A stretch of 64,000 nucleotides of DNA from a virus, in the IMG/VR virus record IMGVR_UViG_3300046514_000858, positions 1-64,000 of that record; one strand, given 5' to 3'. The translations under genes were made by a program, and so were the position numbers. Each line of letters opens with the position of its first letter. The first letter of the stretch is position 1. The notes below the pieces were generated by a model, which saw nothing but the letters and a program-made list of their open reading frames with translations, did not search any database and was not told the origin of the DNA. Positions 12,491 to 53,091 of this stretch are shown in pieces.

Positions 12491-12506
12491 TCAACAATGG
12501 AGGTGA

Positions 12507-28201: not shown

Positions 28202-28831
28202 GTGGTGGATTTCAAAGCGAAGATGCAGGCAGAGCAGGACGAGAGACTCGCAAAGGCGAATCTGGTGGTCAAGGACTACCTCGCCGAGGTCGTGCGATTC
28301 ACCTCGGAGATCGGGCTGAAGATCTTCGTTCGCGAGCAGAGCAGTGCTCGCACGGTCTACATCAAGGACGAGATCGGGAATCCCGGTTACGACGAGTATT
28401 ACATCATCATCGAACCGGATTGGGCTGGATATGCCCATTACGGCCCAACCGGCGAGGTCAAGGTCAAGACGACCGAACCCAAGCCCGGCCGTGCGTATCG
28501 TCGGAAGACCGTGTCCCGCGATGCGATGAAGAACGGCGAGCTGAACACGGTCGAACTCTTCAAGTGGCTCAAGCGCCTCGTCGAGCTCCGCGACCATCGC
28601 GTGAAGTACCTCGCCGAGCGCAAGGTGGCAGCCAAGGCCGAGGCCGAGCTGCAGAAGGAATCCGAACGCATCCAGCAGGAACAGATCGGAGAAGTTCCCG
28701 CGGGCATGCGCGTCCTTCGTCAGGCATCTGGCGAGCACGCGGGCATGTACGTCGTCGAGTTTAACGTCGACGGCAACCGCTGGCTCAAGCCCGAGCAGGT
28801 CCGGGACATCATCAAGATCCTGAAGAGCTAA
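28202..28831 (+). CDS. hypothetical protein
   Basis: AAGGAGG RBS, 209 aa. Confidence 0.65.
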   Translation: MVDFKAKMQAEQDERLAKANLVVKDYLAEVVRFTSEIGLKIFVREQSSARTVYIKDEIGNPGYDEYYIIIEPDWAGYAHYGPTGEVKVKTTEPKPGRAYRRKTVSRDAMKNGELNTVELFKWLKRLVELRDHRVKYLAERKVAAKAEAELQKESERIQQEQIGEVPAGMRVLRQASGEHAGMYVVEFNVDGNRWLKPEQVRDIIKILKS

Positions 28832-28862
28832 CGATTTCTCAGGAACGAGAGCGTTCCTAATT

Positions 28863-28925
28863 ATTCCACCTCCTTCTCTCCTCTGCCCGGACCCCGCGCC
28901 GCCGAAAGGTTACGCGGGGTTTTTT
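28863..28925 (+). ncRNA. candidate anti-Shine-Dalgarno small RNA
   Basis: Perfect ATTTC-N13-CGTTCCT promoter, no ORF, CACCTCCTT at 28867-28875, intrinsic terminator at 28891-28925. Confidence 0.45.
28891..28925 (+). terminator. intrinsic terminator
   Basis: ACCCCGCG...CGCGGGGT stem plus T-run. Confidence 0.8.
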
Positions 28926-28972
28926 ATTTCCCATGCGCGTGCGCGTTCCTGTAGGTGTAGGAGAAAATCATT

Positions 28973-29590
28973 ATGAGCCAGTGGTTGATCGCAGGCAAGA
29001 CCAAGTTCGGTGTCTATGAGGCCATGGACATCATGAAGGCCGAGCCCGCCGAGTGCGATGACGAGGGCCGGGACCGCTGGATCGAGTTCCTCAAGAAGGA
29101 AGGGCGCTGGAACGACGAAGTCTGCGGCGCGCGGCCCATCGCCTCGGTCAACGTCGACGGCGGCGGCATGATGATGATCGGCGAGCCCGATGTCGCGTGG
29201 GAAGCCAACGGCTGCAAGTTCGAGACGCCCATGCGGCAGGTCCGCGATCTGCTGGAGCTGTTCAAGCGCCGCATCTTGAAGCCAGTCGAGGCGTTCCCGA
29301 GCTGCGGCGGCTTCGGCGGCTTCCATCGGAAGTACTTCTTCGCCCTGAAGACCATGCAGGACTCGATCCCGCTCCTCGAAAAGCTGGCCGACGAGTCGGA
29401 CAAGAAAGTCGAGGAGATCGAGAAGAAGCTGCAGGCCGCGCTGAACGCCTGTCCCAACGCGGTGAGCGTCCGGCCCTGCTCCTGTGCCTCCGGCCGCCAG
29501 TACGGCGACTGCTGCGGCAAGGCCGTGGAGTCGGCCGAGCACAAGGAGATGCGCCGGGGCATCAACGCGGGGGAGATTCAGAAGAACTAG
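28973..29590 (+). CDS. SEC-C motif protein
   Basis: PCSCASGRQYGDCCG near the C-terminus. Confidence 0.65.
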   Translation: MSQWLIAGKTKFGVYEAMDIMKAEPAECDDEGRDRWIEFLKKEGRWNDEVCGARPIASVNVDGGGMMMIGEPDVAWEANGCKFETPMRQVRDLLELFKRRILKPVEAFPSCGGFGGFHRKYFFALKTMQDSIPLLEKLADESDKKVEEIEKKLQAALNACPNAVSVRPCSCASGRQYGDCCGKAVESAEHKEMRRGINAGEIQKN

Positions 29591-29593
29591 GAG

Positions 29594-29809
29594 AATCCCC
29601 TAAGTGATCAGCCTCTGGTGCAGGGATCGAATCCCAGCGGGATCACGGCCGAGGATGAACCCTGATGAGGGGAGAACTCAGATCGCGAGTGAACTCGCCG
29701 ACAGAGAATAAGCGCCCCCGTATCTGCACGAATTCTAGACTCCCGTGCAGGGGCAAGGGTGACGAACCACCGGCCGATGCCGGGTAACAGGCTGATCACT
29801 TAGGGGATT
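29594..29809. ncRNA. 216-nt multi-hairpin element closed by a 21-bp perfect inverted repeat
   Basis: AATCCCCTAAGTGATCAGCCT (29594-29614) / AGGCTGATCACTTAGGGGATT (29789-29809); at least 5 internal hairpins; no credible ORF. Confidence 0.6.
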
Positions 29810-29876
29810 TTTGAATCGCTTTTCCTGTCATACCCTCCTCGTTCGGTCGTCTCTAATACGGCTGATGAAAGGAGAA

Positions 29877-30152: not shown

Positions 30153-30457
30153 GCGCCCCGACCTGCGGATGTCCGGTCGACGCACCCGAGGCCGACTCGA
30201 CCCAGTACCCGTGTCCCTGCGGGGATCATTGTCAGATTTGTAAGTGAAGTCAGAGGACACTATGAACAGCCTCGACAAGCAGATCGCCGCAGCCGACCGA
30301 GTATGGCGCGCACACGGGCAGCGCCTACTCGCTGTAGGCGCGATCTGGACACCCGTCCTGCAGCATCTCTTCGACATGAAGGAATACCTTGAATCCCAGC
30401 GTCGACATGCCCGGAAGTCCAAGCGTTCCTGTAAGAGTTGACTTCTTTCCGCAACCG

Positions 30458-30496
30458 CCCCCGGGATCGTACCACACACGATTCCGGGGGTTTTTT
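30458..30496 (+). terminator. intrinsic terminator
   Basis: CCCCCGGGATCGT / ACGATTCCGGGGG plus T6. Confidence 0.8.
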
Positions 30497-33623: not shown

Positions 33624-33927
33624 GCCGATCTCCTTTCCACACGTACCGATCACGTAATATAGACGACCCACCCCGCCGATCATGACACGAAATCGCGATT
33701 ATCATTTTCTTTGTTATACCCGCCCGGGTGCGGCGTCTTACTGTCGTGATGAGCGAAGGAGGTCGAGTGAGTGTGAAGCGCGGGCCCGGGAAGAAGAGCT
33801 ACTGGCTGACCTGCTGGGCGATGAAGGCAAGCGCGGCTGGCATGCCCATGGAAGAGATCAAAGTGAAGATGGCGGAGATGAAGAAGAAGTCCATCGCCGA
33901 GATCATGGCGTGGACGAAGGAGAACTC

Positions 33928-41344: not shown

Positions 41345-41675
41345 CGTGTGTCTGCTTACAAGCAGGGCACGGGTAACCGGGAACGTAGGCCGCCGCCTCG
41401 CACTTCGGGGTTGGACGAATCCGCTTTTCTGTTGCCGTCAGAATATCTTCCATGCTGTTCGCGGCCTGCCGGATCGTGAACCAGTGGCGTTTTAGTTCGT
41501 CAATCTGCAGGTTTGCTGTGCGCAATTCGAGGGTTCGCGTATTGGCGAGATCCCACCCCTCCTTCGCGTGCTTCTTCATCAACTCCAATTCGGCCTTGTT
41601 GCAGTAGCTTTCCGGGTGTGGCTCATGCGGTAGAGACTTGCTCCCGCAAATCTTGCACGTTCTAAAGTCGCTCAT
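41340..41675 (-). CDS. Cys-containing hypothetical protein
   Basis: MSDFRTCKICG...CPAC; coupled to the cupin gene stop. Confidence 0.5.
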   Translation of the reverse strand: MSDFRTCKICGSKSLPHEPHPESYCNKAELELMKKHAKEGWDLANTRTLELRTANLQIDELKRHWFTIRQAANSMEDILTATEKRIRPTPKCEAAAYVPGYPCPACKQTHD

Positions 41676-42145
41676 GCTTCGATCTCGTAGCGGTCGTGCC
41701 GCACCCAGCCCTTCTTGGTCCAGAACCCCCAGCTCCGGCGGATCGCGCCGCAGAAGACTAGAGTCACGATGGGGCGGCTGCTGACCCAAGTGATGGCGTG
41801 CCTGTCTTCGGCGCGCTTCCAGTTCACCCACCGGACGTGCCGCGGCTCACGGTCGGCATCACAGTCGTCGCACCGGCACGGGCCGCAGCAGGGTTCGGTC
41901 GGCACGTCCTCGACGTAGCTGCCCCAGAGCACGAGGGACAGGAACGACCACGGATGGTCGTGCAGGTCCCGCTGCTGGTCCGGGCGGTAGATCAGGTGCA
42001 GCTTGATGGAGAACCACGGGGTGAGGAGAATGTTCAGGCGGCGCATGTACACGCTGCGCCCGTCGCCGATGATCTTCCAGTACCACCAGCCCCACTTGCG
42101 AGCGGCCTTGGGGTCGGTCAGCTCGTCGCCTTCCAGCTTCTCCAT
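41672..42145 (-). CDS. cupin-fold phage protein
   Basis: LH.I...D..RDLHDHPW.F.S..L.G.Y.E...H...WGF. Confidence 0.75.
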   Translation of the reverse strand: MEKLEGDELTDPKAARKWGWWYWKIIGDGRSVYMRRLNILLTPWFSIKLHLIYRPDQQRDLHDHPWSFLSLVLWGSYVEDVPTEPCCGPCRCDDCDADREPRHVRWVNWKRAEDRHAITWVSSRPIVTLVFCGAIRRSWGFWTKKGWVRHDRYEIEA

Positions 42146-49188: not shown

Positions 49189-50407
49189 ATGAACTCATTG
49201 AACGCACTCGCCCCCTCCAAGAAATACCGCATCGTCTACCGCGGCAAATCCTACCTCGCCGACGTGATCGACTGGGACCAGTCGAGCGGCATCCTGACCT
49301 ACGACGGCACCGCGATGATGATCTTCCGACCCGACGAGCTGGCCATCCTGCGTACTGATCAGATTTCTCTCTGACATTGAAGGAACATCGCATGTCCGAC
49401 GACGCCTCGAAGTTCAAGCCGTTCAGCGCCAAGGGTCGTGAATTCTTCGAAGATGGTATCTGGATCCTCGTCGTGGTGGGCGGGGCCGAGTACTACGTCA
49501 AGGTCGACAAGGACAACCTGAAGGCGGCCTTCGAGGGCAAGTCCTTCGACGCGCACATGCCCATGGCGATCCAGCTCCAGCAGCCGCCGATCTTCATGCC
49601 GAAGCTCTACGGCACCATCGACGCCTTCCGGATCCACGGCGGTTCGTTCTCGACGACCGCGCTTGTCCATCCGGAGCTCTCGGCCGCGCTGGACAAGCAG
49701 CTCCAGCATGGCCTCTCGATCATCGACGTCGTGACGGAAGGTGACGCTCCTCCTCCGCCGAAGCCCGGAGAGAAGGTGAAGCTCCACCTCACATGAACCG
49801 CCCGGCCCCGACCGGGGAGGGCGCATGGAATACAGACTCCGATGGGGAGTGATTGAAGTTCGGGCGACCCTCGACGTTCAGGGCCTCCTGCACTTCGCCT
49901 GCCCGTTCTACGGGCGGGATACGTTCTTTCGACCCGATGACTTCCGCGCGAGCGCGCGCGAGATCCGGACGGTCGGGGTAGCACTGTGCGAATTCCGCGG
50001 ATGTAACGTGCCGTACGAGATCGTGCACTCGTACTTCATGCCGTTGCGATTCGAGGACCTCAACAAAATGTGCATGTACCAGCAGTGGTACATGCCCGAG
50101 ATGATGCACGCAGTCTGGAAGGCCCGCAATGAGCGACGACGCGAATAACATTGACTTCACCCTCGACAATCCCAAGACTAAGAAGCGCCGCCGCATGCTC
50201 TTCTTCAAGCGGCCGAAGGGATCGAGCATCCCCGTCGGCCTCAAGTGGACCTGCCTCTGCGGGACGGTGAACGTGCTCAACGACAAAGAAAAGCAGTACT
50301 GCGCCGACTGCGGGAGTTGCCTGCAGAATCAGGAGAACCTGAACCCGGCGCACACGTACTACACCCTCGTGATCGTCGCGCATTTCAACCCCGCAATTCG
50401 CCGCTGA
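49189..50407 (+). other. four small ORFs inserted in the head module (49189-49374, 49377-49796, 49825-50148, 50129-50407 zinc ribbon)
   Basis: Late motif at 49173; same-strand packing; last ORF has WTC.CG..N...C..CG. Confidence 0.55.
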
Positions 50408-50459
50408 GTATTTCGGTTCCTATGGTCCAAGGGAATAGACCGTAGGAGCTGAAATACCC

Positions 50460-51732: not shown

Positions 51733-53091
51733 ATGGACCTCAAGAAGATTCAGGACGAGATCGCGCAGACGATGGCCGAAGCGCGCAAGCAGATCGAGAA
51801 GAAGAACGCCGGTCAGGGCTCCTTCAACGCCGAGGCGTTCGAAGCGAAGTTCATGAAGGCGCTCGCCGACCGCGACGCCATCCACGCCGCCGAAAAGCGG
51901 AAGGCCCCCTTCATCATGGAAGAGGAGCCCACCAAGCCCCAGCCCCGCGTGCTTCTGGAGAAGTCCGAGCGGCCGGAGGTCAAGGAGTTCCAGAAGTTCA
52001 ACGACGACTGCGTCATGCTGGCGTCGCTGACCCGGAAGCACCCCACCACGCTGGAGTACTTCCAGAAGAACAAGGACCGCTTCCTCGACGAGCGCGGCAG
52101 CACCGAAGTCGCCAAGGCCATGGCCGCCGCGACCGGCGGCTCCGGCGCGGACTGGGTCCCGACCGAGTTCAGCTCCGATCTCTACGACCGCGTCCGGCTT
52201 GACGCCGTGATCGCGGGGCAGTTCGCCGAGATCCAGATGCCGACGCCCATCTACAAGCTGCCCACGGGCGACACCGATCCGACCACGTATCTCACGCCCG
52301 AGAACACGTCGGACACCCCGAACCTGTACCCGGCGTCCACGCCCTCGACGGGCAACGTCACCCTGACCGCGTCGAAGCTGACCACGAACATGGTCTTCAG
52401 CGACGAGATCACGGAGGACTCGATCATCCCGATTCTGGAGTACCTCAAGAACCGCCTCGCGAAGTCCATGATGTACACGCTGGAGGACGCCTACCTGAAC
52501 GGCGACAACTCCACGACCCACATGGACGCCGACGTCACGGTTTCGACCGACGCCCGCAAGGTCTGGAAGGGCCTGCGCAAGCTGGCGCTGGTCTCGAAGG
52601 ACACGTCCTTCTCCTCGTGGGCTCCCGCGGTGGTCGCCACCGGCATCGGCCTGCTCCGCTCCATGCGCTCGAAGATGGGTCGCTACGGCACCCTGCCCAG
52701 CAAGCTGGCCTACATGGTCGGCGTGCGCGGCCTGATCGCGCTGCTGAGCATGCCCGAGATCATGACGCTGGAGAAGTACGGCCCGCAGGCCACGATCCTG
52801 ACCGGCGAGATCGGCAAGGTCGACAACATCTCGGTGCTCGTCTCCGAGAAGTTCCGCGAGGACCTGAACGCGTCCGGCTTCAACGACTCGACGACCAACG
52901 TCCGCGCGGCGATCCTGCTCGCCCACCTCCCCGCCTTCGTGCGCGGCACGCGGCGTGGACTCCGGGTCCGGCCGTGGGTCGACCCGCGCTCCGGCACCCA
53001 GAACCTCGTGCAGGACTGGCGCGGCGACTTCCAGCCGGTCTTCGCCACGGGCCAGCCCTACGTGGTCAAGGGCGTGGACTGGGGCATCTGA
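51733..53091 (+). CDS. HK97-fold major capsid protein
   Basis: N-terminal delta-like region, AK|AM...GADWVPTEFS, AYLNGD, GEIG; followed by a terminator. Confidence 0.9.
   Translation: MDLKKIQDEIAQTMAEARKQIEKKNAGQGSFNAEAFEAKFMKALADRDAIHAAEKRKAPFIMEEEPTKPQPRVLLEKSERPEVKEFQKFNDDCVMLASLTRKHPTTLEYFQKNKDRFLDERGSTEVAKAMAAATGGSGADWVPTEFSSDLYDRVRLDAVIAGQFAEIQMPTPIYKLPTGDTDPTTYLTPENTSDTPNLYPASTPSTGNVTLTASKLTTNMVFSDEITEDSIIPILEYLKNRLAKSMMYTLEDAYLNGDNSTTHMDADVTVSTDARKVWKGLRKLALVSKDTSFSSWAPAVVATGIGLLRSMRSKMGRYGTLPSKLAYMVGVRGLIALLSMPEIMTLEKYGPQATILTGEIGKVDNISVLVSEKFREDLNASGFNDSTTNVRAAILLAHLPAFVRGTRRGLRVRPWVDPRSGTQNLVQDWRGDFQPVFATGQPYVVKGVDWGI

Follow-up and report, generated by a model that had tools for sequence, protein, structure and literature searches.

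MicL and DapZ exemplify the type I 3′-UTR-derived small RNAs (sRNAs), which are transcribed from an internal promoter. Other regulatory RNAs target the Shine-Dalgarno (SD) sequence. These include RsaE/RoxS, C-rich anti-SD sRNAs of Gram-positive bacteria, and the icaR mRNA of S. aureus, in which a pyrimidine-rich anti-SD in the 3′ UTR pairs in cis with the SD on its own 5′ UTR. As infection by phage T4 advances, a protein, the endoribonuclease RegB, inactivates early mRNAs at their GGAG-type SDs. Mycobacterium also has a C-rich anti-SD sRNA, 6C (PMC6486639), and the c4 RNA of phages P1 and P7 is a phage antisense RNA that blocks ribosome binding sites (RBSs; PMC12197685). The phage RNAs named in the latter review are solely target-specific ones such as c4 (PMC12197685), and a full-text literature search found no description of a phage-encoded global anti-SD RNA.

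The phage cassette described here (28834–28925) resembles each of these systems in part. Like MicL and DapZ, it has a promoter motif at or after the end of the upstream gene, shares a terminator with that gene, and places a short unpaired seed before a hairpin, with no ORF. Unlike them, it is phage-encoded, carries a phage-specific class of promoter and a generic SD-complement seed, and has no homology that we could find. Its unpaired C/U-rich motif would oppose the G-rich SDs of several mRNAs, as in 6C and RsaE/RoxS. However, the latter are encoded by conserved genes of the chromosome and expose the motif in hairpin loops, whereas the cassette would present it as a linear 5′ tail of 19 nt. 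As with c4 and the sar RNA of P22, we propose a phage RNA that would pair around the RBS of phage mRNAs and block their translation and, as with c4, would act in trans from the same transcription unit. The complementarity of c4 and sar is long and directed at one specific target, whereas the tract in the cassette (tract A) matches the SD core only. A sister tract (tract B) and the tracts of a related phage (G001), which match a family of leaders over 11–13 nt, are nearer to the c4/sar pattern. The end result that we propose equals that of T4 RegB, which cuts the SD that RNA pairing would mask here. Finally, the cassette and icaR both place a pyrimidine-rich anti-SD within a 3′ UTR, but the sister tracts clearly match leaders on other operons.

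The cassette belongs to an IMG/VR phage record of 93,745 bp (GC ~62%) flanked by 127-bp direct terminal repeats. The window, i.e., the whole stretch of DNA analyzed, covers its first 64 kb. The plus strand carries nearly all of the genes, and the gene calls behind the counts given below are rough. The phage codes for gp32-like, RecA/UvsX-like and Mre11/Rad50-like proteins, a DnaB, a primase, a DnaE-type polymerase-UDG fusion, sugar-modifying enzymes, an ADP-ribosyltransferase, and portal, capsid and tail proteins. Outside the window, positions 88719–89279 of the genome (L004:8719–9279) encode a 186-aa protein whose N-terminal half is like region 2 of ECF sigma factors (…FYRLYIQKIAQKH…EDIFQELSMVLWQ…) and whose C-terminal …LVDTLPPETKQAALDA… is region-4-like. 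The protein has no significant match by sequence in Pfam, PHROG or PDB; it might be a phage sigma factor that serves one of the promoter classes.

The GenBank phage collection contained no similar phage, and searches with the capsid, terminase and upstream proteins returned no relatives. The sole relative found was G001, a syntenic genome of 96.8 kb with ~70% nucleotide identity; a metagenome scan returned it again and a scan of genome contigs yielded none. The epimerase gene was uninformative about the host, with matches of at most 42% identity spread over many phyla. Restriction-type sites are strongly avoided in both genomes: CCWGG, CGATCG, GCCGGC, GGCGCC, CTCGAG and CAGCTG have no copies in the phage described here (G000), nor do GCCGGC, CAGCTG, CCGCGG, AGATCT and GAGCTC in G001. 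In addition, G001 has a strand-asymmetric deficit of CCTC (227 CCTC versus 488 GAGG).

The phage genes fall behind distinct promoter motifs. Class I (ECF-type) promoters, represented by 18 TGWHAY-N16-CGTC sites, precede short leaders with strong SDs such as GGAGGTGAT, GGAGGAA and GAAAGGAG; the GGAGGTG SDs that a first-pass annotation had placed near 12499, 23008 and 23550 are present. At most Class I promoters (e.g., 30499, 36198, 42171, and 27455), a GTG(ATGA) lies 8 nt past CGTC; next come a strong SD and another start codon, which is in frame in the cases checked. This arrangement may provide dual leaderless and SD-led starts. GTCCAAG(-N4-TAG) sites precede late genes and often abut the ATG. 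Class II sites (ATTTC-N13-CGTTCCT) number ~12 and are mostly intergenic and mostly on the plus strand, where near-matches are four-fold more common. With one mismatch at most, the two-block motif occurs five times in the window versus 0.28 expected, a count reached by none of 100 shuffles. Genome-wide, with spacers of 12–14 and up to two mismatches, there were 20 matches on the plus strand, some of them overlapping registers of one site, and 5 on the minus strand, compared with 1–9 per shuffle. In G001, the Class II motif is not above chance.

The distance to the start codon is also consistent. It lies 6–9 nt past CGTTCCT at eight sister Class II sites, seven with ATG (9612, 9987, 16587, 26618, 32276, 38077 and, on the minus strand, 43627) and one with GTG (34735). 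A variant, CGTTCTT, on the minus strand ahead of gene 41672–42145 is a further ATG case, and CGT-N10-ATG is kept in the G001 orthologues of 35470 and of 38090, the latter behind a Class II promoter in this phage. We read CGTTCCT as a –10-like element that would serve leaderless mRNAs. The contrast drawn at first between SD-led Class I genes and leaderless Class II genes is broadly right, in that Class II and late motifs mostly abut starts, but it does not extend to the operon-internal genes, which have SDs in every class.

The cassette lies on the plus strand between the last gene of a Class I operon (28202–28831), called from its ORF and codon score, and a gene led by GGAG (28973–29590). The former codes for a 209-aa protein with no Pfam or PHROG match and the latter for a Cys-rich 205-aa protein of no family. 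A Class II motif (28834–28858) with zero mismatches, formed by ATTTC (28834–28838) and CGTTCCT (28852–28858), separates the stop codon at 28831 from the C/U tract. As the first-pass annotation stated, no gene follows it: the region 28832–28972 contains no start of an ATG, GTG or TTG ORF of at least 30 aa on either strand. The motif behaves as a promoter, and we infer that the copy at 28834 is transcribed. The position of the start codons at the sister sites places its predicted start at ~28863–28865, 1–3 nt ahead of tract A (CCACCTCCTTCTCTCCTCT, 28866–28884, plus strand), and predicts an RNA of 57–62 nt. The motif's spacer contains AGGAACG (28841–28847), a perfect 7-bp inverted repeat of CGTTCCT with a 4-nt loop. 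The repeat (28841–28858) would give the upstream mRNA a hairpin in its 3′ UTR; alternatively, it could be an operator-like palindrome.

The 19-nt tract A is unpaired and leads into an intrinsic terminator on the same strand (28889–28925), composed of a GC-rich hairpin (28889–28922) and T6 (28920–28925) followed by ATTT. In the predicted fold of 28860–28925, the first 29 nt are unpaired and the hairpin has a free energy of –22.8 kcal/mol (z –2.6), which agrees with the initial proposal of a ~60-nt RNA ending at this site. Strong plus-strand terminators number only about six in the genome, that at 28920 included. Tract A was unpaired in both the minimum free energy (MFE) and centroid folds of the short RNA. 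In the read-through and 3′-UTR contexts, the centroid also left it unpaired and the MFE fold had only weak partial pairing. Past the terminator, a second perfect Class II motif (28926–28950, plus strand), GGAG and the ATG at 28973 follow in order, so the downstream gene has its own promoter, as initially noted. Promoter motif, unpaired tract and terminator in the absence of an ORF support an sRNA-gene anatomy. Tract A and the terminator would also form the 3′ UTR of the 28202 operon mRNA.

Other annotations of the locus were considered and rejected. An SD-like AAGGAGGTG on the minus strand is followed by GTG-GAA-TAA alone, and a long antisense frame starts 120 nt off and scores as the shadow of gene 28202. 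A leaderless peptide from the ATT at 28863 is unlikely, with a non-canonical start and 37 open codons that cross the terminator. Masking of the gene 28973 RBS in cis on read-through transcripts was also discarded: the pairing is absent from the fold (z –0.9) and the duplex reaches –13.3 kcal/mol. There is no tRNA or tmRNA, and no paralogous copy or recent duplication of 28834–28925. No Rfam family matched it at the gathering score, and only a minus-strand ylbH-leader (17 bits versus a cut-off of 50, E = 1) appeared at E values up to 5.

The C/U tract was described at first as a match to the anti-SD of 16S rRNA, and positions 28867–28875 (CACCTCCTT) are indeed identical over 9 nt to the core of the 16S rRNA 3′ tail (CACCUCCUU). 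The 9-mer has one copy in the 93.7-kb genome, none of it on the minus strand, versus an estimated ~0.35 per strand from base composition; it is unremarkable alone and notable for its position. The 20 nt ahead of the hairpin are 90% pyrimidine (background P 0.0004). Tract A would form duplexes of –14 kcal/mol or stronger with 17 of the 18 Class I leaders, with a mean of –16.0 versus –11.6 for random windows. For example, it pairs over 7 bp (–14 kcal/mol) with GGAGGUG leaders and over 9 bp with GAAGGAGGU at 33712. Longer complementarity (at least 11 nt) was limited to two sites in the phage, one of them its own antisense, versus 1.6 in shuffles. The genome-wide duplex scan was similarly unspecific: purine-rich coding sequence dominated, with RBSs in 6 of the 30 top sites. 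By these measures, the complementarity of tract A is generic, comprising 7–9 nt of the SD core without a specific phage target. The notion that the RNA masks SD-led early mRNAs is thus only partly borne out. Tract B and the G001 tracts match Class I RBSs over 11–13 nt, but tract A offers the SD core alone and is predicted to bind GGAGGUGAU leaders less tightly (–14 kcal/mol) than the 16S tail does (–17 to –19 kcal/mol).

We also identified a sister cassette (cassette B; 30417–30496, plus strand) with a similar order of elements. GTCCAAG and CGTTCCT abut at 30417–30430, within the last codons of a small ORF (30263–30441), and are followed by tract B (CTTCTTTCCGCA, 30442–30453), a –26.7 kcal/mol hairpin and T6. 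The tract at 30442 (CUUCUUUCCGCA) can pair over 12 nt, including one or two G-U pairs, with UGYGGAAAGGAG, the RBS sequence of four Class I leaders (21630, 27501, 34314 and, on the minus strand, 33641). No sense-strand match elsewhere in the genome is longer, and their count was reached in 1 of 300 shuffles.

Tracts of this kind recur in both phages. In five of the ten strongest plus-strand terminators of the two genomes, the 20 nt leading up to the hairpin are at least 70% pyrimidine, a share found in 5% of background 20-mers. We define the module by this pyrimidine content next to a strong plus-strand terminator, past a stop codon and in the early/middle region. All five fit this placement, whereas late terminators have no tract. 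Two modules are in the phage described here (28920, 90% pyrimidine; 30491, 70%) and three in G001 (49447, 50433, and 53052; 70–75%), all on the plus strand. CGTTCCT is 7–12 nt ahead of the tract in both modules of this phage, a placement with an estimated chance of ~0.0025 per module, and in none of the G001 modules. The cassette at 28834 is, by sequence, one copy of a recurring module of C/U tract and terminator.

The G001 modules (L007, plus strand, tract plus terminator at ~49402–49452, 50390–50438, and 53003–53058) provide a comparison. Two of them are paralogous, with a common tract (CCTTTCTGTTCT) and near-identical loops, and their stem arms diverge yet stay complementary. A CCAAG-N3-TAG before these tracts (49382) was rejected as a late-type promoter, as it does not fit GTCCAAG-N4-TAG. 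The G001 tract CCUUUCUGUUCU can pair over 11–13 nt with GAAC(A/G)GAAAGG, located 6–8 nt before the ATG. Four of these RBS matches (15078, 40445, 51532 and, on the minus strand, 51435) are behind TGTAAC-N16-CGTCT promoters and a fifth (43076) has no recognizable promoter. In total, this G001 tract has 8 sites versus 0.85 expected, a number reached by none of 300 shuffles. The leader RBSs differ between the two phages (UGYG-GAAAGGAG here, GAACA-GAAAGG in G001) and so do the tracts, with complementarity kept. Thus, tract and leader co-vary, which favors pairing between them. The leader copies are paralogous, so the covariation rests on few independent events in two genomes.

Directly after gene 28973 is a separate element of ~225 nt (29591–29815, plus strand) with a closing stem of ~22 bp, a T5 end and a predicted MFE of –104 kcal/mol (z –6.2). 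Its counterpart in the relative (L006:18867–19082) is 75% identical and in a different neighborhood. Of the 61 predicted pairs, 13 are kept through two-sided changes, six of them in the closing stem. The element has no Rfam or tRNA match and is predicted to be a conserved structured RNA or a mobile hairpin element.

The explanation that we favor, although tentatively, is that the cassette is an anti-RBS element carried both by a ~60-nt sRNA and by the upstream operon mRNA in its 3′ UTR. A G-free C/U ‘anti-RBS’ tract located past a stop codon and directly 5′ of a strong terminator would remain single-stranded and pair with the purine-rich SD regions of Class I leaders, lowering their translation. 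In this phage, the module at 28866–28925 would have acquired its own perfect Class II promoter. Tract and terminator could then exist in two forms, as the 3′ end of the upstream operon mRNA and as a separate ~60-nt RNA with a 5′-terminal seed, like a 3′-UTR-type sRNA with an internal promoter. Tract A would be a generic SD complement (CACCUCCUU plus CUCUCCUCU) rather than leader-specific and, therefore, could act broadly on GGAGG- and AAGGAG-type sites. That the RNA accumulates, pairs in vivo and represses translation is predicted from sequence. Function would not require a separate sRNA, given that tract A is in the upstream 3′ UTR and that the G001 tracts are promoterless.

This last point leads to the simpler view that the locus is a terminator and 3′-UTR module only, where the 28834 promoter adds read-through or is incidental and a separate sRNA is unimportant. 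The tract could then be a G-free spacer that lets the hairpin fold, a U-rich module of the Hfq type, or a cis-acting anti-SD as in icaR. We regard this as a serious contender but an unlikely one. All three G001 modules have the stop codon 5–10 nt upstream and no promoter motif, and the module may consequently have begun as a 3′-UTR element and not as an sRNA. Hfq is known to bind a layout in which a hairpin and poly-U follow a pyrimidine- or U-rich stretch, and by analogy the order of tract, hairpin and poly-U would fit it. Furthermore, when 140 gene starts are compared, the RBS with which tract A forms its strongest duplex (–26.1 kcal/mol) is that of gene 28202, on the very mRNA that carries the tract. 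However, this duplex is equalled by 3% of shuffled tracts, and the targets of the sister tracts are on other operons, i.e., in trans. CGTTCCT is directly upstream of both modules in this phage, once within a perfect two-block promoter. Read-through is also not needed for expression of gene 28973, because the gene has its own perfect promoter past the terminator.

The promoter could instead be an orphan left by a deletion. In this scenario, a small leaderless Class II gene, once located between the 28834 promoter and the tract and terminator that closed its operon, was lost, its promoter now abuts a 3′ UTR, and any short RNA is a by-product. Consistent with such a scar, there is no ATG where the sister promoters have one, and the small early genes are highly mosaic, with a G001 homologue for only 9 of the 71 called genes that start in 20–44 kb. 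Nor is the cassette or its seed conserved: the locus is absent from G001, the sole relative found. Gene 28973 is the only flanking gene kept there (61% aa identity), where it follows a different gene without an intervening promoter or terminator. Other contigs encode matches to the 28973 product, at 100% identity or, on an NCBI contig, at 97%. In IMG/VR, exact tract A has no match, and the 97 matches to CGTTCCT-N3-12-CACCTCCTT are all unrelated, with no blastn similarity to the phage. Yet the promoter matches the consensus perfectly and shows no decay, a search for a coding remnant or paralogous fragment found none, and the module at 30417–30496 repeats the geometry of promoter motif followed by tract. 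A deletion scar is, for these reasons, an improbable origin of the cassette.

More doubtful still is the global role envisioned in the first-pass annotation, in which a mimic of the 16S 3′ tail titrates the SDs of host and early mRNAs and leaves ribosomes to the leaderless phage mRNAs. If true, an RNA would switch the mode of translation initiation genome-wide. The 9-nt identity to the anti-SD core is in its favor, as is the contrast between leaderless first genes of Class II and late operons and SD-led Class I leaders. However, the caveat that late genes still have SDs proved well founded: the 16S tail forms duplexes of –8 kcal/mol or stronger at 57 of the 140 called starts (~40%), including late, replication and operon-internal Class II genes. 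A global anti-SD RNA would, therefore, hit the phage’s own genes too. It would also have to out-compete the ribosomes, which bind the best SDs tighter. Additionally, G001 has no equivalent, with no CACCTCC on its plus strand and avoidance of CCTC on the coding strand, and the sister tracts are leader-specific rather than generic. The proposed bias of ribosomes toward leaderless transcripts is, accordingly, unsupported. Reviews describe MazF-family toxins that cut the anti-SD (PMC5408214), but a decoy that soaks up such a toxin, another defense nuclease or a pyrimidine-binding protein is barely credible, its sole support being the 16S-tail identity with CUCCU and UCCUU, while no defense or anti-defense gene is linked to the cassette and the sister tracts are unlike the 16S tail and yet match leaders.

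If the anti-RBS module works as proposed, RNA would have a share in setting the timing of gene expression in this phage lineage. The tracts ahead of operon terminators would shut off translation from the SD-led leaders that belong to one promoter class and, in this phage, would also be issued as separate ~60-nt RNAs from a second. For tract A alone, the question is whether an anti-SD RNA of generic sequence could act at all in competition with ribosomes, and the covariation of tracts and leaders offers concrete base pairs that can be mutated. Such a module would be an RNA counterpart of T4 RegB and a rare case of sRNA-type control in a lytic-type phage whose gene classes are split between leaderless and SD-led initiation.
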